In this document: in pieces, positions 37,532 through 54,034 of the stretch
Numbering within the stretch: the first letter of the stretch is position 1
Layout of the letters: the number at the start of each line of letters is the position of its first letter
Source of the DNA: Scenedesmus sp. PABB004
Lineage: Eukaryota
NCBI GenBank assembly: GCA_014905635.1
Contig: JABVCE010000010.1
Location: forward strand, 310,001-374,000
Reading direction: 5' to 3'
Length of the DNA: 64,000 nucleotides
Program-made: the position numbers and the translations under genes
The notes under the pieces: generated by a model
The model's database searches: none
What the model was told of the DNA's origin: nothing
Seen by the model: the letters and a program-made list of their open reading frames with translations, nothing else

Positions 37532-39198
37532 CGCGCGCGCTTCCGCTGCCGCCGCCGTGCACGCTGTAATCGTTACCCGCCGCCGCCGTGAGCACCACGT
37601 GAGCACCACGCCCCGCCCAGCCCGCCCAGCGCCCGATGACAAGAGCAGTTCGGCAGGAGGCTCGGGCAGCGCGCCGCCGCGGGGCACGAAACGGGGGGGA
37701 CCACAGTGCGATGGCGGGCGGGCACCGGCGGCCGCCTGCGCCCGCGCGCGCAGGCGAGGGCGCGCTCGCGGGGCCGGCAGCCGCGCGAGGCGGCGACCGC
37801 CGCCAGTGCCCGCCGTCTTCTTTGCCACGCGCGGCTGCGCGCGCAGAGAGTGATCGTCACGCAGCGAGGAGGAGCGGGCGCTCCTGTGGCGGCGGCTGCT
37901 CTGACTGGCCGCTGCCAGCCTGCTGCGTCTGCGCATGTGCCTGTGTGCATGCGTGTGCCTGGAGTGCGCGAGCCATGTGGGAGAGTGTGTGCGACAGCCG
38001 CCGTGGCCTCTCTCTGAGACCATGACCGATGATGATCTTATCTGATCCGTGCGCATCGCGGGCTGGTCAGCACTGCAAAAACGGCAAGACCAAGCCCACG
38101 CGGGCGGCGCGCGCCCACGCGCGTGCGCGTGCGCGCGCCGCCGCCGCGCCGCACCCCCGCACCCCGGCGGGGCAACATTCTCTCTCCGTGCGATTGAACC
38201 CGCGCGGCGCTCGGCCGCGGCGCGAGTTGTTGTTTTTGGGGGGCTGCCGCCCTTTTGGGGGCTGCCGCCCTTTTCTGCCACGCCCCGCTGAGGGAATCGT
38301 GCGCGCGTGCGACCAAGGGAGGGCGAGGGGCGCCGCCGCCGCTGCGCCGCGCGGGGGCGGCGCGCCCCCTCCCTCGTGCCACGCGTGCGCCGCGGCAGCG
38401 TATTGAGCTATACACCCGGGACCCACGACGACACGCGCCACGCGGGCGCAAACATTGCAGCAGTGAGTGCCCCAGCCGCCGCGCCGCGGCGCCGCGGCGG
38501 CGGCAGCGCACCTCAGGGGAGTGCGCGCGGCCGAGGCGCCCGCGGCCGGCCGCTGCTGCGCGCGCAGCCCGGCGGCGGGCTCGCTCGCGGCGCCTAGCCA
38601 GGGCGCCCCTGGTGGCGCGCCCAGGGAGCCGCGGCTCCGCGCCCGCGCCGGGCTCGACGCTGGCGGCACCTCGCTGGCCAGCAGTTCGAGGGGGAGCGCG
38701 TCACGCGCGGGGCGCCCCGCAGCGACGACCGGCGGCGGAGGCGGCCGTGCGGTCGGCTGCAGACGCGCGCGCCGCGCCGAGCTCGGGGCCGGCGGCCCGC
38801 CGCGCGCGCGGCGGGGAGCAAACAGACAGTGCACACTCGGGGAGCAAACGACAAGGGAACCCACAAAAACAAGAAGTAAAATTCACGCGCTCGCAATCTG
38901 ACGCTGCCAGTGTTAACGATACATGCGCGCCTGGCGCGCGCCGCCGGCTGAGGTGCAGCCGGCGCCGCGCGCCGGGCGCGCCGCGCACGCGGGCGGGCGG
39001 CTGCCGGCGCCGGCCGCGGCGAGCGCCGCGCGCCCGCCGCTGGCGGGCAGCCAGCGGACAGGGGCACGCGCTGCCGCCGGCGCACGCGGGCGGGGGCGCG
39101 TTCGGGGCGCACTGCCCGGCCCGCGCCGCCGCGCCGGCAGGCGCTGAGAGGCGGTCGGCCCGCGCCGGCCGCCGCCTCGCGCGGGCCTCGCCCCGGCC

Positions 39199-44111: not shown

Positions 44112-44917
44112 GGTGGTGTTGCGCGCGCGGGGCCGGAGGGGGCGCGCCGGCGCCGGTGCTGCCCTAGCGGGCGCCGCGCCGCCCGGGCGGCATGCCGTGC
44201 GGGCGAGCCAGCGGCGGCTGGGCACGCGCGCGGCGGGGGCCGCGCCGCGCGGGCGCGGGCGCGGGGGCGGGAGCTGCTGCGCGGGCGCTCGGCGGGGCTG
44301 GTGGGAGGGGTGAGGGGTGGGGCGGGTCGGCGGGCGTCTGGGCGCGGCGACGGCGTGCGGCGGGGGGCGTCGTGGGCGCGCGAGGGCCGGCCAGGCTGTC
44401 ATAACGCTGCTGCTGCCGCCCCGGAGCCCCAGCGCCCGCGCCTGGCCGCCCATCACGCGTCAGAGCTCGGCCTGCTCCCGCACACGCCTGCAGGCACAGA
44501 TCGGGCCAGCCAAGAGCGCCGCGCGCAGCAGTCGCTTCGAGAAGCGAGGCGTCTCTGCTCGCAGTCGCCCTCTGCGGCCGGCCCCGCGGTCCCAGCGCGC
44601 CGCCAGCATCCCCCGAGAGCCGACGCACGCAGCTCGCAGGCGCAGCAGCAGCGGCGGGCGCAGCAGCGGCGCCAGCAGTCGCCGCCAGCGCGCCGCGCCT
44701 GAGCGGCAGGCCGCCCGGCGCCGCCAGGAGGGCCCGTGCAGCAGGCGCCCTAGCCGGCAGCAGCAGCTGCGGCAGCGGCCGGCGGTCGCGGCGGGCGCGG
44801 GCGCGCAGCGCCGCGTGCAACCGGCGGCGGCGCGGCCGGCGGCGGCGGGGCGTGGGCGTGGGCGGCCACCTCCGCGCGGGCAACCGGCCAGCTCCGCGCG
44901 TGCACCCGCGCGCCGCG

Positions 44918-47018
44918 ATGGGCAAGGACTACTACGCCATACTCGGCGTGGCAAAGGGCGCGGATGATGCAGAGCTCAAGAAGGGTGCGGCGGCGCGCGG
45001 GCGGGGGCGGCCGCGCGCGGCGGGCGGTGCATGCACGCGCGGGCGGCGCACGCGCGCATTCCCGGGCCCCCACCGCGGCGCGCGTCGCGCCGTCGCCGCT
45101 GCACTCACCGCCCCCGCCCGCCGCGCGTCGCCGCGCGTCGCCGCGCGTCGCCGGCCGCACCGCCGCAGCGTACCGCAAGCTCGCAATGAAGTGGCACCCG
45201 GACAAGAACCCGGACAACCGCGCCGCGGCGGAGGCCAAATTCAAGGACATCAGCGAGGCCTACGAGGTGACCGATGCGGCGCACTCGGATGAGCGGCGGC
45301 GGGGCGGCGCGGCCGTGCGTGCTGCCCGGAGAGGGCGTGCCGGCGGCGGCGGCGGCGGCGACAGTGGGGGCGCGCGCCTCGGAGACCCGCCCCGCCCCGC
45401 GCCGCGCCGCGCCTCACAGGTGCTGAGCGACCCCGACAAGCGCCAGGTGTTTGACACCTACGGCGAGGAGGGACTCAAGGCGGGCGGCCCGGGCGGCCCC
45501 GGCGGGCCCGGCGGCCCCGGCGGCATGGGCGGGCAGCAGTTCAACTTCCGCAGCGCCGACGACATCTTCAGAGAGGTGCGGCGCGCGGCCGCGCTGGGCG
45601 GCGGCGGCGCGCGCCCGGCCGCCGCCGCCGCGGGCCGCGCGCCCGACCGCGCGCGCGCACGCGTTGCCCGCGCGCCCGCACACGCAGTTCTTCGGCGGCG
45701 GCGGCGGCGGCGGCATGGGCGGCGCGGACCCCTTTGGCAGCCTGTTTGGCGGCATGGGCGGCATGCCCGGCGGCATGGGCGGCGGCGGGCCCTTTGGCGG
45801 CATGGGCGGGTGAGCGCGCGCCTCGGCGCGCCGCGGGGCGGGCGGCGCCGCGCCGGCGGCGGGGGCGCGGCGGGCCGCTGACGCGCAGCGCGCGCCGCGC
45901 GCCGCGCCCGCCGCAGCGGGGGCTTTGGCGGCATGGGCGGCCCCATGGGCGGGTGCGCCGCGCGCGGGGCGGCGCCGGCCCGCCCGCGCGGGACTGTGCC
46001 GCCGCGCCCCGCCAGCGCCACCGCCTACCTGACCGCGCCCCGCCCGGCTGACCGCCGCCGCCGCGCGCCGCAGCATGCACGGCATGGGCGGCGGGCGCGG
46101 CGGCCCCGTCAAGGACCGCCCGATCACGCGCAGCCTCGGCTGCACGCTGGAGGAGCTCTACGCCGGCTCGACGCGCAAGATGCGCATCAAGCGCAGCGTC
46201 TTTGACGCCGCGGGGCGGCCGAGCCGCAGCGAGGAGGAGATCCTGGAGGTCGCGGTCAAGCCGGGCTGGAAGCGGGGCACCAAGATAACTTTCCCGGAGA
46301 AGGGTGCGTGTTGCTGACGCCGCCGCGGCGCGGCGAGCAGCGCGCGCGCGTGCGCCGGCGCCGACGCGGCGCGCCGCCGGCGACGAGCGCAGGCGACGAG
46401 CGGCCGGGGCACGTCGCGGCGGACATGGTGTTTGTGGTCGAGGAGAAGCCGCACGCGCGCTTCAAGCGCGACGGCGACGACCTGGTGCTGCACAAGCGCC
46501 TCAGCCTCGCCGACGCGCTGTGCGGCGTGAGCTTCGACGTGCAGGCGCGAGGGGGGTGCGCGGGGCGCGAGAGCGCATGGCGCGCAGGCGACGGCGCCGC
46601 CGCCGCGCGGCGCGCGCTCGCGGCGCTGCGCCGACGCGCCGGCGCCGCTCGTGCCGGGCTTGCGCAGACGCTGGACGGGCGCACGCTGAGCATCAGCACG
46701 CGGGACGAGGTCATCTCGCCGCACCACGCCAAGATCGTGCGGTGCGCCGCGCCTGCGCCCCTCCTGCGCCGCGGCTGCCGCCTCCCCGGCCCGCCGCCGC
46801 CGCGCCGCGCTCACGCTGCCGCGCCGCGCTCACGCCGCGCCGCGCTCACGCCGCGCCCCGCGCCTGCGCCGCGCCGCCGCAGCGGCGAGGGCATGCCCAT
46901 CAGCAAGCAGCCGGGGCAGCGCGGCAACCTGGTTATAAAGTTTGATGTCGCCTTCCCGCGCAGCCTCAGCAGCAGCCAGAAGGAGCAGCTGCGCGCGCTG
47001 CTGCCGGCGGGCGCGTGA
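44918..47018 (+). CDS. Type II (DNAJB/Sis1-like) Hsp40 co-chaperone
   Basis: [11 protein letters not shown]..., [10 protein letters not shown]- and G/M-rich linker, [45 protein letters not shown]. Confidence 0.95.
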
Positions 47019-47398
47019 TCACACCTCATGAGGCGCCGCGCGCGCGAGGCGCCGCGCGCGGCTGCGGCCGCCGCAGCGCGACATTGCGCTCGGGCGGCGC
47101 GGACGGCGGACTGGGACGGCGGCGCGTGAGCTGCTGCAGCCGCAGCTGCGGCGCGTGAGCTGCTGCGGCGCGTGAGCTGCGCGGCTGACGGTGTGATCGC
47201 TGCCGCCGTGGCGGTTGCCGGGCGCGCGCCCCCTGCTCTCCGCACGCTCCCGCGCCGCTGCCAGCGCCAGCCCAGCCGCGAGCGCTGCAGGCACCCAGCT
47301 GGCCTCGCCAAGTCGTCGTCAGCCGCGCGTCACGGAACCGCGCGCCGTCGCGGAGCAGCCGGCCCCCTCCCCCCACACGCTCGCCCGCGCCGCCGCGC

Positions 47399-48028
47399 TC
47401 AGCCGCGGCGCCCCGACGGCATGCGCCGCAGCGACGCCGACAGCGTGCTCTGCCGGCGCAGCGGCGGCGCGTCGCCCGAGTGCACCGAGCTCAGCCCGCC
47501 GACGCTGCCGCCGTCCCACGACGTACGCGGCGCGCCCGAGTGCTCCGTGCTGCGCGGCGAGGCCACGTCGCCGAGCAGGTCCGCGAGGTTGAGGTCCCGC
47601 AGCTCCTCGTCCAGCTCGACGACGTCGAGCGTCGCATGCTCGTCGATCGTGGGCGGGACGTCGAGGTCGCCGTCGGACGAGTCCAGCGGCGCGCCGAGGC
47701 TGCCCGCCGGCGCCGCGCCGCACGCGGGCGCGCCCGCCGCGGCCGCGAGCAGCGCGTGCGGCCACGTGAGCTGCGCGAGGCCCTTGTCCGAGCTGGCGCT
47801 GAACACGTAGTGCGCGCCGGGGCGCGCCGCGGCGCCGTAGCACGACGCGGCACAAATTGTGTATGAGCCTGCCGCGCGGCGCGGCGCGGCGCGGGCAGGG
47901 GCGGGCGGGCGGGGGTCGGCGCGCGGCGCGGCCGGGCGGGGCGCACCCCTCCACGCCGCCGGCACGAACAAGCAGGAGGGCGAGCCTGGCGCAGCGCCCG
48001 CCCGCGCCCCGCTCCGCCCCGCCCCACG

Positions 48029-48124
<96 letters not shown>

Positions 48125-50670
48125 GTAGTAGGGCAGCATGAGGAAGTCGCCCTCCCGCAGCGCCGGCACGAGCGCGGAGCGCTGCACGATGTCGCGCTCG
48201 CCGCTGCTGCCGCGCAGCACGCTGCGCAGCAGCGGCGCGCCGCCGCCGCCCTCGTCGGCCGGCAGCGCCGGCAGCAGCGGGCTGCGCAGCACGAGGTACG
48301 TCGGCTGCAGGCCGTCCACGGCGACCTGCGGCGTGTGTGCGGCGCGCGCGCGGCCGCCGGGCCCTCGCGGCGCGCCCCCAGCACGCGCTCATGCCCGCGC
48401 GCGCGCCCAGCACACGCCCGAGCACGCCCGCGCGCGTGCCCAGCACACGCCCGCGCGCGGCGCCGCGCGCGCACCAGGATCCTGAAGCTCCCAAACGCGC
48501 CGTCGCTGAGCGTGTACTCCTGCACCTCGCCGCCGTCGTCGCCGCGCTTGGCCGCGCCTATGACGCTCGTGAAAAAGGTGGCCGACGTCTCCGCGAAAAA
48601 CCTGGGACGCCGCCCGACGCCGCGGCGGCGTGTTCAGGCAAGGTGGCGCAAGCGAGCAACGCAGGCAGGCCAGCATCGCCCGGGCGGCGGGCCCCCGAGC
48701 GCGCGCGGCGCGCGGCGCGCGGCCCCGCGCGCGCGCACCGCCCCGGCTCCGCGATGACGCGCACGTGCGCGCCCGCGCCGTCGGCGGGGAAGTGGCGCGC
48801 GAGCGCGCCGTTGATCGCCCGCGCGGTCTCCACAAACAGGCGGTGGCTGTCGGCGTCGTACGGCGCGGTGAAGCCGCCGCCAATGTCGAGCAGGCGCAGC
48901 GGCGGGAAGCCCATGCCCGCGGCGGCGTCAAACACGGTGCGCGCGCGTGAGATGGCCTCGCCGTAGATGCTGACGTCGTGGCAGCCGCTGCCGACGTGGA
49001 AGGACACGCCCACGACCTGCGCGCAGCGCGGCGGTCGGGGCAGCGCGGCGCGCGGTCGAGGCGGCGCGGCGGGCTGTGCGGTCGAGGCAGCGCGGCCGAG
49101 GCGGCCCGCGCGCGGCGCGGGGCCGGGCGGACCTGCAGGCCGAGGCGCTTCGCGTGCGCCAGCAGGCCGTGCACCTCCTCCATGTCGGCGCCGTACCTGC
49201 GGGCCGCCGGGGCGGGGCGGGCCGTCGGCGCCGGTCCACCGCGTGCGGCGCGGGCGCGGGCGCGGCGCGCGGGCGCGGGCGCGGCGCGCACTTGGTGCCC
49301 AGGCTCAGGTGCGCGGTGGGGTCGTCGCAGCGGATGCGCAGCACGAGCTTGAACGCCGGGTGTCCCTCGGCGATCTTCTCCAGCTCGCTCACGCAGTCAA
49401 AGGTCGTCACCTCCACGCCGTGCTGGCGCGCGTAGCGGAAGTCGAGCGGGCGCTTCATCGGGTTGGCAAAGATCACACGCTCCTGCGGCACGCCCAGCGC
49501 CGCCGCCGCCTGCAGCTCGGTGACGCTCGCGCAGTCAAAGCCCGCGCCGAGCGCGCACAGCGTCGCGAGCACGGCTGCGGGGCGGCGCGGCGCGGCGCGG
49601 CGCGCGGGCGCCGCTGACGCGCGCGCCGCGCGGCCGGCCGCCTGCGGGGCGCGCGCGGCCGCGCAGGGCGGGGCGCGCACCCGGCTGGGGGTTGCACTTG
49701 ACGGCATAGAACGGCGTCACACGCGGCAGCGCGGTGCACCACATCGCGTGCAGCCGCGCGACCTGCCGTGGGGCGCGCGGGCGCGGGCGGCGTCGCACGC
49801 CGCGCCCTCGCCTCGCGCCTCGCTGCTGCAGTGCGCGCGCGTGCGCGGGGGCCGAGGCGCGCACGGCGCGCGCGGCGCAGCGTGCGCAGCACAGCGCGCG
49901 CAGCACAGCGCGCGCGCGCGCGCCTCTCCGAGGTCGTAGACGTAGAACGACTCGCCGCCCTCGCCCGCCTCGCCGCTCGCGATGAGGCTCGTCGCTGCGG
50001 CGCGGGCGCGCGGGGCGGCGCAGGCGCGGCGGGCGCACGGGGCGCGCGGCGACGGGCGCGGTCGGCGCCGTTCGCGCGGCCGGCGCGCGGCGCGCCGGCC
50101 GCGGCGCTGCGCCGCCGCACCCGCGTGCGCGACGCCCTCGATGTTGCCGTCCGGCAGGTGCAGCGCGCCGAAGCGCTCCAGCACCTCCTCGAGCGCGGGC
50201 CCCGGCGCGGGCGTGACGTGCACGCCCAGGCCGCCGCCCGGCGGCGCGCCGCTGCCAGGCAGGCCGCCGAGCGCGCTCGACGTCGCCGACCCCGCGCGCG
50301 TGAGCGCGGGCGACGAGCACGTCGACGCGCGGGGCGCGATGCTCGGTGAGCGGCTGACGTAGGACACGCGGCCGAGCGAGACCTGGGTGAGAACGATGTC
50401 CTGCACCGCGGCGAGCCCGAAGGGCGTCGCGCCGTACGCGCGGGGCGTGTCCGCGCTGCTGGTGCCGCTGCTGGCGCTGCCGCCGCTGGCCTGCACCGAC
50501 GGCGGCGCGCCGGGCCCGCTGCTGCTGGTCGCGCTGGCGCCGCTCGGCCCGACGCCCGCTGCTGCGCGCTCGTGGTGGCGCCGCCAGTGGAGCACGCGCG
50601 ACAGCCAGCTGCGCCGAGCGAGCGCCTTCTCGGCATCGGTGCCCGGGGGCTCGCCCGGCTGTGGGCCCAT
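47399..50670 (-). CDS. Ornithine decarboxylase-like (fold III PLP) protein with a degenerate C-terminal catalytic motif
   Basis: FYVYDLG, PFYAVKCNP, FDCAS, IFANP, TFD..ELEKI, LRI, KYGA, GVSFHVGSG, LDIGGGF, IAEPGRFF, GSYT. The GPTCD motif is replaced by GSSGE. Confidence 0.88.
48030..48123. repeat. (CA)n microsatellite in an ODC-like intron
   Basis: Visible directly. Confidence 0.97.
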
Positions 50671-51041: not shown

Positions 51042-53375
51042 TCAGCGCCGGAACGGCCGCCGCGCCGGCGCGCGGCGCGCGGCGCCGGCCCCAAGCCCCG
51101 CCGCGTAGGCGCCGTAGGCGCCGAGGCCGCCGGGCGCGGCGTCGGCGTCGGCGAGGTCGTCAAAGCCGAGGCCACGCTGCGCGCCGTTGCCGTTGGGCAC
51201 GACGGGCTGCTTGATGCCGCGCCCGTCCCGGCCGAGGCCCTTGCCCGGCTCGTAGCCCATCTTGCGCATGAGGCTGTGCGCGACGCCCCACGACCCGGCC
51301 TTGGCCGCCTGCGCGGCCGCCGCGGCGGCGGCCTCGGCGGCCTCGCGCGCCTCGGCCTCGCGCGCCTCCGCCGCGCGCGCGGCCGCCGACTTGGCCGCCG
51401 CCGCGGCGGCGGCCTCGCGCTCGCGCTCCGCCTCCTTCTCCGCGTCGAACTGCCCGCCGCTGACCCACGCGATCGGGCGTCGCGGCGGCGAGGGGCCGCG
51501 GCTGCCGCCGCCGCGGCCGTACACGCGCTTGGCGCCGCCGCCGCCGCCGCCGGCGGCCTTGGCCGCGCGCCGCAGGCGCAGCAGGCCCACGACGTGCCAG
51601 AACGGCCGGTAGCCGGGCTGCCCCGGCAGCGCCTGCGGCCCCGCCGGCGGCGCGGGCGCGGGCGCGTCCTCGACGCCTGCCGCCGCGCGCGCGGCCGCCG
51701 CGGCCTCCGCCCACTCGCGCTCCGCGTCGGCGATCTGCTGCCGCCGCCGCGCCGCCGCCTCCTCCTCGGGCGGCGGCATCGGCGGCAGCGGCGGCTGGCC
51801 CGGCGGCGCGCCGCCGTCGTCGGGCGGCGGCATCGGCGGCAGCGGCGGCAGCGCGTCGGCGCGCTCCTCCCAGCTGTCCGGCGGCGAGCCGGCCGGCAGC
51901 GGCGCGGCCGCCGCGGCCGCCGCGCGGAACGCCTGCCCCGTCTCGACGGCCGCCCAGAAGCCCGCGGCGTTGAGCCAGACCACAAACTGGTCCTCCCCCG
52001 CGCCGCCGGGGCCCGAGTGGACCCAGAACAGCGGCTCCTGGTCCATCAGCTGCCTGAACTTGCCCTGCGGCGCGGCGCGGCGGCGGCCAGGCGCGGCGCG
52101 CGTCGGCGGCACTGCCGTGCGGTGCGCACGGGCGGCGCGCGCGGGGCGCCACCCGCGCGGCGCCTGCAGGCCGCGCGGCGCGGCGGCGCGGGGCTCGCGC
52201 GCGCGGCGCACCTTGCCCATCTTCACTTCCTCCTTGATTGTCGCCATGATCTCATGCGTCTGGCTGCCCAGCGCACCCAGGCCGAGCGCGTGGCCGGGCG
52301 CGTACAGCAGCGCGGCCGCGACGGCGCGCGTGAGCCAGCTGAGCGCGTCGCGCGCCGGCCACGCCGCCGCGAGCGCCGACAGCACCGCCTCGCGCTCGGG
52401 CGCGGCGGCGTCCTCAAACTCAGGGAGGCTCTGCAGCGCGCTGAGGTCGTCGCCCAGGCCGACGGCCTTGAGCGCCTGGAGCTGCTGCCGCCGCAAGTGC
52501 GCGCTGAGGTCCTCGTCGAGGTCGAGCGTGGCGCTCGCCAGCTGCGCCATGCCGCCCGCGGCGCGGCGCCCGCCGCCGCCGGCGCCGTCGCCGTCGCCGT
52601 CGCCCCGCTTGCCCTTGCGGCCGCCGCCGCGCCTGCGCCGCGACTTGGCCGCCGGCGCCGGCGCCGGCGCGAGCGGCAGCAGCAGGTCCTCCGCGCTGTG
52701 CTGCTGCCACGTGCTGTTGGCCTGCATCGCTGCGGCCATGAGCGACTGCTGCAGGCTGCCCGCGGGCGGCGCCTGCGGGTGCGGCTGCGGCAGCTGCGGC
52801 AGCTGCGGCAGCGACGGCGGCAGCTGCGGCAGCGGCGGGCCCTGCTCGGCCGGCTCCCAGCGCCGCCGCCGTCGCGTCGCTGGCGGCTGCTGCTGCTGCG
52901 GCTGCGGCACCGGCGGCAGCGGAAGCAGCGGCGGCAGCGGCGGCAGCGGTGGCAGCGGCGGCGGCGGCGGGAGCGGCGGCAGCGGCGGCTGCTGCTCGCT
53001 GCTGGTGCGCCCGCGCTCGCTGCTGCGCCGCCGCTCCCTGCTGCTGCGCCGCCGCTCCCTGCTGCTGCCGCGCCGCTCCCTGCTACGCTTGCGCTCCCTG
53101 CTCCGGGCGCGCTCCTTGCTGCGCTTGCGCTCCTTGCTGCGCTTGCGCTCCTTGCTCCGCTTGCGCTCCTTGCTGCGCCTGCGCTCCTTGCTCCGCTTGC
53201 GCTCCTTGCTGCGCTCCCGGCTGCGCCGCCGCTCGCGGCTGCGGCTGCTGCGCCTGCGCTCCTTGCTGCGCCTGCCGTCGTCGCGGCTGCGGCTGCGGCT
53301 GGACCGCCGGCGCTTCCTGTCGCCCGGCTCGGCGGCCGCGCCGTTGGCCGCCGGCGCCGGCGGGGGCTCCGCCAT
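51042..53375 (-). CDS. G-patch domain protein with an N-terminal RS/KERKRS-repeat region (one intron, ~52066-52211)
   Basis: WGVAHSLMRKMGYEPGKGLGRDGRGIKQPV...RGLGF; 18-bp KERKRS-coding tandem repeat at ~53040-53270. Confidence 0.85.
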   Translation of the reverse strand: MAEPPPAPAANGAAAEPGDRKRRRSSRSRSRDDGRRSKERRRSSRSRERRRSRERSKERKRSKERRRSKERKRSKERKRSKERKRSKERARSRERKRSRERRGSSRERRRSSRERRRSSERGRTSSEQQPPLPPLPPPPPLPPLPPLPPLLPLPPVPQPQQQQPPATRRRRRWEPAEQGPPLPQLPPSLPQLPQLPQPHPQAPPAGSLQQSLMAAAMQANSTWQQHSAEDLLLPLAPAPAPAAKSRRRRGGGRKGKRGDGDGDGAGGGGRRAAGGMAQLASATLDLDEDLSAHLRRQQLQALKAVGLGDDLSALQSLPEFEDAAAPEREAVLSALAAAWPARDALSWLTRAVAAALLYAPGHALGLGALGSQTHEIMATIKEEVKMGKVRRAREPRAAAPRGLQAPRGWRPARAARAHRTAVPPTRAAPGRRRAAPQGKFRQLMDQEPLFWVHSGPGGAGEDQFVVWLNAAGFWAAVETGQAFRAAAAAAAPLPAGSPPDSWEERADALPPLPPMPPPDDGGAPPGQPPLPPMPPPEEEAAARRRQQIADAEREWAEAAAAARAAAGVEDAPAPAPPAGPQALPGQPGYRPFWHVVGLLRLRRAAKAAGGGGGGAKRVYGRGGGSRGPSPPRRPIAWVSGGQFDAEKEAEREREAAAAAAAKSAAARAAEAREAEAREAAEAAAAAAAQAAKAGSWGVAHSLMRKMGYEPGKGLGRDGRGIKQPVVPNGNGAQRGLGFDDLADADAAPGGLGAYGAYAAGLGAGAARRAPARRPFRR

Positions 53376-54034
53376 GGGCGCTGCTGCTGCGGCTGCCGCT
53401 GCTCGCGCCGCCGCGCGCCGAGTGCGCGGCTCCGGCCCCGACGCTGCGCCCGGTGGGAGTCAGCCGGCACAGGGCGGGTCCGGGACGGCCCGCTGCGGCG
53501 CTGCGGGGCGGCGGCCGGGCGGCGGCGGCGTGGCGGGGCGCGGCGGCTCGTCGGTGGTGCGCGTGGCGCCTGCTCCCGGGCCGCCGCTTGACACCGTCAG
53601 CGTCGTGAGCCTCCAGCGCCCTCACCGCGAAAGCGGAGGCGCGCCGAGTGCGACCGTGCCGCCGCCGCGGGGCAGCGCTGATTGCGGGCGGCGCCCCCGC
53701 TGGCTTGGAGGCGCGGCGCCGACGCTGAGGCGGCGCAGGGCTGAGCTTTGGGCGCCCGAAGGAGGGGGCCTGCGCACAGCGGCGCTGCACCGCAAAAGAA
53801 CCGCCGCGTTCGAAGCCGCAGTGACGCTGTGCGGCGCCGTCGAGCGACGGTCGTTGGCGGTGTGAAGTTTACACGCAGGTTGTGTGTTGACTGACTCGGG
53901 GGCACAGCAAAAATGCACAGCTCGCTCTCACGCGCGGGCGGCCCGCCGGCCGTAGCGCGCGCGCGCGCGCCAGCCACCCGGCGTCCACCCTGCGCGCTGA
54001 GTGGTCCAGCCGCCGCGTGGTGGGGCGGCGGTGG

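Follow-up and report, generated by a model that had tools for sequence, protein, structure and literature searches.

An ornithine decarboxylase paralogue without the catalytic Cys-Asp pair in Scenedesmus sp. PABB004: candidate partner subunit or enzyme of another specificity

The question at stake at the locus described here is how ornithine decarboxylase (ODC) protein is controlled in the green lineage, without a known antizyme. A gene of Scenedesmus sp. PABB004 encodes an ODC homologue from which the catalytic Cys-Asp pair has disappeared, as claimed in the first-pass annotation of the window, i.e. of the whole stretch of 64,000 nucleotides that was analysed (G000:C3:310001-374000 in a 40-Mb genome; GC about 80%). 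Judged from sequence comparisons, this is a real, conserved Cys-less ODC paralogue, which probably acts either as a partner subunit of the normal enzyme or in a different reaction.

The gene and its active-site residues

The gene was modelled on the basis of splice signals and homology. It occupies positions 50670-47399 on the minus strand and consists of nine exons (Table 1), which form an open 708-codon frame with a single terminal stop. Seven introns are of the GT-AG type and intron 2 is GC-AG; intron 8 (47869-48123, 255 nt) contains no in-frame stop. Exons 4 and 6 pass the Pfam PLP-barrel family PF02784, exon 8 alone gives no Pfam match, and by its sequence the protein belongs to the ODC branch of the fold-III (Orn/Lys/Arg) decarboxylase family. 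The two neighbouring genes have no evident link to it.

Table 1. Features of the ODC-like gene (C3 gene) and of its surroundings; positions refer to the window
Feature	Position	Strand	Remarks
G-patch gene	51042-53459	-	Arg/Ser-rich; ends about 370 nt upstream of the ODC-like start codon
Exon 1	50121-50670	-	First ATG after in-frame stop; low-complexity N-extension; ODC core begins
Exon 2	49924-49994	-	Followed by the sole GC-AG intron; intron position also in C8 paralogue
Exon 3	49681-49762	-	PLP lysine K229 (ODC K69) at 49699-49697
Exon 4	49292-49574	-	D88, E94, D134, R154 equivalents kept; C114 is Met; PF02784 E 2.6e-24
Exon 5	49133-49196	-	K169 codon spans exon 4/5 junction; G171 kept
Exon 6	48739-49016	-	H197, S200, G235-237, E274, G276 kept; PF02784 E 4e-23
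Exon 6 3' junction		-	Splits R277 codon
Exon 7	48475-48601	-	Y323 is Phe; N327 is Arg (48483-48481), clade-fixed; K294 column is Ala
Exon 8	48124-48325	-	Y331 is Val after one-residue insertion; D332 kept; holds Cys-less loop
Cys-less loop LRGSSGERD	48191-48217	-	C360 to Gly, D361 to Glu, one residue deleted; G357, D364 kept
(TG)47 microsatellite	48030-48123	-	Begins at intron 8 donor
Exon 9	47399-47868	-	G387, Y389 kept; F397 is Tyr; N398 is Gly; 131-aa tail; stop 47401-47399
DnaJ gene	44900-47019	+	Converges on 3' end of the ODC-like gene

Residues are numbered as in ODC, the numbering being anchored on a vertebrate row of the alignment and checked against solved ODC chains. Among the 20 residues listed as critical for ODC in PMC5518511, 17 are kept (K69, D88, E94, R154, K169, G171, H197, S200, G235-237, E274, R277, D332, D364, G387 and Y389) and three are changed (C360G, D361E and F397Y). 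Lysine 69 and all own-subunit PLP contacts (D88, E94, R154, H197, S200, G235-237, E274, R277, D332, Y389) are present, 13 of 13, and the PLP-barrel motifs described earlier as intact were all found. The replacement of the loop WGPTCDSAD by LRGSSGERD, shorter by one residue, the sequence DGAFGSFR and the loss of the FNGF motif also proved to be as claimed. Further changes are Y323F, N327R, Y331V, W356R, N398G, C114M, Ala in the K294 column and a one-residue insertion preceding D332. The dimer contacts D134, K169 and D364 are kept, and those at K294, Y331 and F397 are replaced. In ODC, C360, D361 and Y323 are donated by the other subunit, while Y331 and D332 come from the same one (PMC3543441); F397 derives from chain B and Y389 from chain A (PMC11912471). 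All three changed critical residues lie on the side lent to the partner subunit.

An alternative exon carrying GPTCD, considered in the first-pass annotation, was rejected, as no such word occurs in any of the six frames or in any intron of the gene (best score 21, where the word itself would score 80). Across the whole window, a pattern scan for GPTCD-like words gave two unrelated, far-off matches, at 37698 and 10698.

A Cys-less ODC clade in Sphaeropleales

Searches of the same genome, whose counts are lower bounds, revealed at least four loci matching PF02784. Besides the C3 gene, these are a canonical ODC (C1), another gene without the Cys (C8) and a more distant one (C15), which looks like a diaminopimelate decarboxylase. 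With PF00278, at least one further distant gene was found, on C30. The check for a canonical paralogue, proposed at first pass, was thus answered by the ODC on G000:C1 (524 aa, loop WGPTCDSAD). The C8 paralogue (L013 = G000:C8:110000-118500, minus strand, 5895-1872) has 10 exons, 796 aa and the loop WGSSDRDGD. The C3 gene has four intron positions in common with it and none with the C1 gene; core identity of the C3 protein is 63% to the C8 paralogue, 52% to the C1 ODC and 42.5% to the vertebrate ODC-like row.

Some particulars of these loci may be recorded here. Both Cys-less genes have an intron that opens with a long TG-type repeat, but it is not the same intron (in the C8 gene, the repeat is at L013 3372-3075). 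In the C8 gene, 24 bases from the start of exon 5 also occur a second time (L013 4437-4364), about 70 bases upstream in the intron and behind their own AG, a possible duplicated or alternative acceptor. The C30 gene (L095 = G000:C30:28500-37500, minus strand, about 4772-3285) encodes a distant fold-III decarboxylase-like protein with the Cys-loop GPLCFQGD.

Homologues were collected by a protein search with exon 6 (1044 matches, the best 120 of which were examined), by a search with the C-terminal part of the relative P0012 (26 matches) and by a profile search of 1.84 billion representatives (150 of 13,473 matches listed). Of the 304 proteins collected, 41 bear the clade signature, and 35 of the 41 cover the loop, near-duplicates included. 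The clade is defined here by GGGFTAP, N327R, an insertion before D332 and no C360, all of which are seen in the C3 protein. The named members come from Tetradesmus obliquus, T. deserticola, Scenedesmus sp. NREL 46B-D3, Hariotina reticulata, Raphidocelis subcapitata and Monoraphidium minutum, all Sphaeropleales of the families Scenedesmaceae and Selenastraceae. The range of the clade may be wider, since many members carry no species name, including the divergent P0016, P0124 and P0125. The losses are mixed differently in P0124 and P0125, where D361 is retained, Pro replaces C360 and Gln replaces R277. The record name of member P0005 marks it as an ORF derived from a transcript; no such record was seen for the subtype of the C3 protein. 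No clade member was present among 80 metagenome loci kept of 571, nor a relative of P0012 in the viral contigs searched, and exon 8 alone scored with none of 1362 candidates among longer proteins. CHLRE_16g683371 (P0038), which we take to be Chlamydomonas ODC2, was rejected as a Cys-less counterpart, being canonical.

The Cys-Asp word occurs in all 35 canonical algal rows, in 121 of 134 covered representatives among those listed (13 are without it) and in 78 of 80 metagenome loci. It occurs in 0 of the 35 clade-signature proteins that cover the loop, a count that includes near-duplicates and both genes of this genome. Its absence from every one of these proteins and its presence in the canonical sets indicate that the Cys loss is neither chance nor an assembly error.

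In a tree of 66 selected rows, with fragments and most near-copies left out, 21 clade rows formed a single group (SH-aLRT 100) beside the 35 canonical algal rows. When barrel columns were used and eight more rows were dropped, 18 clade rows grouped at 100/100, with a bootstrap not fully settled. By these sequence trees, the Cys-less clade is of separate origin within chlorophycean ODCs. Phylogeny, one of the checks proposed at first pass, thereby showed what the annotation itself had missed, i.e. that the Cys loss is common to a clade spanning two Sphaeropleales families and to a second gene of the same genome. The C3 protein groups with P0002 (T. obliquus) and P0013 (NREL 46B-D3), with support of 98 on the core and 82/49 on the barrel, and short sequence motifs at both ends weakly back this grouping. 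Both of these species also carry the commoner clade type, so two subtypes coexist; the C8 paralogue is nearer to the common one. Canonical ODC is also found in T. obliquus (P0037) and M. minutum (P0117).

The Ser-rich N-extension described earlier does exist (160 residues beyond the vertebrate row, 16% Ser), but it is not special to this protein, since four canonical algal ODCs have 92-137 extra N-terminal residues with 10-16% Ser. Two short motifs in it are common to the nearest relatives; the likeness starts at residue 22 to P0002 and at 92-111 to P0013 (pairwise E 0.002-0.003). The acidic tail was borne out in its acidic core (131 aa versus 17-36; D+E 14%). The long tail is a clade trait, and its basic Ser-rich end is common to the C3 protein, P0002 and P0013. 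The PF00278 match of P0012 scored 29.8 bits, over the cut-off, and that of P0013 17.4, under it. A predicted model of P0012, not of the C3 protein itself, shows the complete fold of ODC (TM 0.82-0.91, depending on the target; rmsd about 3 Å, about 395 columns; mean pLDDT 68.7), with a disordered tail.

Possible roles of the C3 protein

One plausible explanation, which we prefer tentatively, is that the C3 protein is a half-enzyme subunit, whose PLP barrel is completed by Cys360 and Asp361 of canonical ODC. Both subunits of ODC contribute to each active site, and mutants in K69 and in C360 complement each other to form one working site; the same idea was put forward for planarian ODC5 and ODC6 (PMC5574924). 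A C3 homodimer would be no effective ODC. Paired with canonical ODC, the C3 barrel would bind its own PLP and borrow C360 and D361 from the partner, and such a heterodimer would have one live and one crippled site. Because each canonical subunit would still give one site, and because a pure inhibitor needs no PLP site, the protein would be expected to modulate ODC and not simply to inhibit it. The 'half-active ODC' suggested at first pass would accordingly hold per dimer, but not per canonical subunit. Such a modulator could stabilise the dimer, alter kinetics or substrate range via the changed 327-332 helix, or alter turnover or location via the tails.

A retained PLP site and an unconstrained position 360 are both accounted for by the half-enzyme reading, and the retention of own-subunit PLP contacts together with the change of partner-donated residues speaks for it. 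Invariant in all 18 clade rows are D134, R154, K169, H197, S200, G235-237, D332, G357, D364, G387 and Y389; K69, D88 and E94 (one gap) and also E274 are kept in 17, the exceptions being two faulty-looking gene models. C360 is absent from all 18 rows, replaced by Asp (9), Gly (6), Pro (2) or Asn (1), and the D361 column holds Arg in 11, Glu in two, Asp in two, and Gly, Lys and Ser. The lack of a common residue at 360, set beside the full conservation of D134, K169 and D364, counts for the half-enzyme, as does the occurrence of canonical ODC in this genome, T. obliquus and M. minutum. N398 is lost in all 18 rows. Of beta-domain columns conserved in the 35 canonical algal rows, the clade keeps 2 of 19 in three partner-facing segments versus 29 of 46 elsewhere (p 1e-4), and the C3 protein 3 of 19 versus 28 of 46 (p 1e-3), the segments having been drawn post hoc, after seeing the data, and the rows being related.

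Other observations count against the half-enzyme. An intact PLP site with altered substrate loops also fits a new enzyme. The donated side appears remodelled rather than erased, since Y323 and F397 are still aromatic in 16 of 18 clade rows and an acid stands at 361 or 362 in 17 (at 362 in 14), which argues against plain loss. Nor is the own-subunit site wholly invariant: R277 is kept in 15 of 18 rows, and two divergent members have Gln. Changes at the interface (Y331 to Val or Ile in all 18 rows; K294, W356 and C114 in the C3 protein) may weaken any dimer, and the Y331S substitution in human ODC raised the Kd 11-fold (PMC4139326). One mammalian ODC paralogue that was tested did not pair with ODC (PMC5518511).

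It is also possible, with greater doubt, that the protein is a homodimeric PLP enzyme with another substrate or chemistry. This might be a decarboxylase that works slowly and whose amine pocket is shifted, the insertion having displaced D332 and the acid now standing at 362 instead of 361. Lacking the Cys acid, it might otherwise be an aldehyde-forming enzyme, either a decarboxylating transaminase or an oxidase; Arg327 would be a new binding residue. Mutants of ODC at C360 shift to transamination, although no paper stating this was found in our literature searches. Such an enzyme would be in keeping with the retention of all PLP contacts, with the features fixed or nearly so in the clade (N327R in 18 of 18 rows, T359S and C328I in 17, the common insertion and the frequent acid at 362), and with the full ODC fold predicted for P0012. 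The beta domain of the C3 protein is also selected by the clade's own pattern (49 of 64 versus 22 of 60 columns, p 1e-5), and no difference was seen against the canonical conservation pattern (40 of 64 versus 30 of 56, p 0.36). A precedent is mouse Gm853, a leucine decarboxylase (PMC6313458); however, it keeps all critical residues, Cys included (PMC5518511, PMC6313458), and the C30 gene of this genome likewise keeps Cys in its loop. Moreover, the clade members differ widely at positions 358, 360 and 361, as the pocket of a conserved enzyme does not.

Unlikely, in our estimate, is a non-catalytic binder resembling the animal antizyme inhibitors, a monomer or loose dimer that would sequester an antizyme-like protein or sense PLP or polyamines. 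Repeated origins of defective ODC paralogues are on record (Ivanov et al. 2010 as cited in PMC5574924), 13 of the 134 representatives listed and covered are without the Cys-Asp, and Y331 is lost as in AZIN1 (PMC6313458); the long tails would also suit a binder. A hint that the clade stays in the polyamine circuit comes from the ATG-started uORF of the C8 gene (L013 6131-5997, minus strand, 44 codons), which ends with PRFG, much as that of the canonical ODC gene (L012 6334-6272, minus strand, 20 codons) ends with PPFGR. None of the 871 stop-ended frames of the window ends in this way, and no clear match was found at four loci checked in other algae. These uORFs recall the proline-ended uORFs of ODC homologues in animals and fungi; the groups listed in the excerpts of PMC2811004 do not include algae. 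AZIN1 has a polyamine-sensing uORF; in the 375 nt upstream of the C3 gene, a scan restricted to AUG starts found no ATG.

On the other side, AZIN1 is a monomer without PLP and without R277, D332 and Y389 (PMC6313458), all three of which the C3 protein keeps, so that the antizyme-inhibitor analogy drawn at first pass is weak; its other two proposals, a heterodimer partner and an enzyme of other specificity, are still the leading options. The recommended check for an antizyme gave no PF02100 match in the genome at E <= 10, with prokaryotic control genomes that were also silent, so that absence is not established. As of 2007 no plant antizyme gene had been detected, and a glaucophyte one was mentioned (PMC1874602).

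A decaying duplicate or a wrong gene model is very improbable: the C3 protein has the longest end branch of the clade (0.55), and the gene and its two nearest relatives (genome models, faulty-looking in places) are without transcript evidence, but the frame is open over nine exons, 137 of 153 clade-conserved barrel columns are matched by the C3 protein versus 38 of 93 variable ones (p 4.5e-16), GC at 4-fold sites is 96.8%, like the 97.0% of the canonical gene, versus 89% in introns, and counterparts exist in two other species. These column counts point to clear and strong purifying selection at the protein level in both domains. At a 4-fold-site GC of about 97%, estimates of dS between the paralogues could not be relied on.

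Known ODC paralogues and polyamine control

The C3 protein has the fold, the PLP lysine and all own-subunit PLP contacts of eukaryotic ODC (PF02784 and PF00278; e.g. PDB 7ODC and 2OO0), and differs from it at C360, D361, N327, Y331 and N398, in the insertion before D332 and in the long tail. AZIN1 and AZIN2 are likewise ODC paralogues; they are without ODC activity, as the C3 protein may be, and AZIN2 has Val at C360. Other homologues have changed substrate, such as Gm853/ODCrp, a leucine decarboxylase, and the arginine decarboxylase of chlorovirus PBCV-1 (2NVA). The latter keeps the catalytic Cys, which the Sphaeropleales clade does not; the same difference separates the clade from Gm853 (PMC5518511).

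Like the defective ODC homologues (Ivanov et al. 2010 as cited in PMC5574924), the C3 gene is a paralogue beside an intact ODC, with key residues replaced, and heterodimer roles have been proposed for such homologues (Ivanov et al. 2010 as cited in PMC5518511, PMC5574924). Planarian ODC5 (C360V) retains K69 and lacks C360, as the C3 protein does, and ODC6 is K69S (PMC5574924). Unlike in the planarian pair, a K69-less partner is absent from this genome, in which at least five decarboxylase loci were found, the lineage is without a known antizyme, and the origin is separate. Defective ODC paralogues are thus a known, recurrent kind, of which the Sphaeropleales clade is an uncharacterised lineage. 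No description of this clade was found in the literature searched, which left out most subscription journals and included the excerpts of PMC9491463, PMC2811004, PMC1874602, PMC6356823 and PMC7955037 (11 of 17 supplements). In the last of these, two genes labelled 'ODC', which may be canonical or clade genes, fall in the cold. Because database entries like P0001 and P0129 carry the name 'ornithine decarboxylase', active and non-canonical genes may be lumped together when ODC genes are counted or their expression is read in these algae.

With a conserved paralogue that has a PLP site but not the donated loop, the heterodimer idea of 2010 can be tested directly in algae that are easy to grow. 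Should the protein prove to be an enzyme, its ODC-fold catalysis would proceed without the Cys that 121 of the 134 covered homologues listed possess. It may be, as we suggest with some reserve, that Sphaeropleales regulate polyamine synthesis by a natural half-enzyme, whose substrate range might be altered, where animals and fungi use the antizyme circuit, or else that they have a Cys-independent chemistry on the ODC scaffold.
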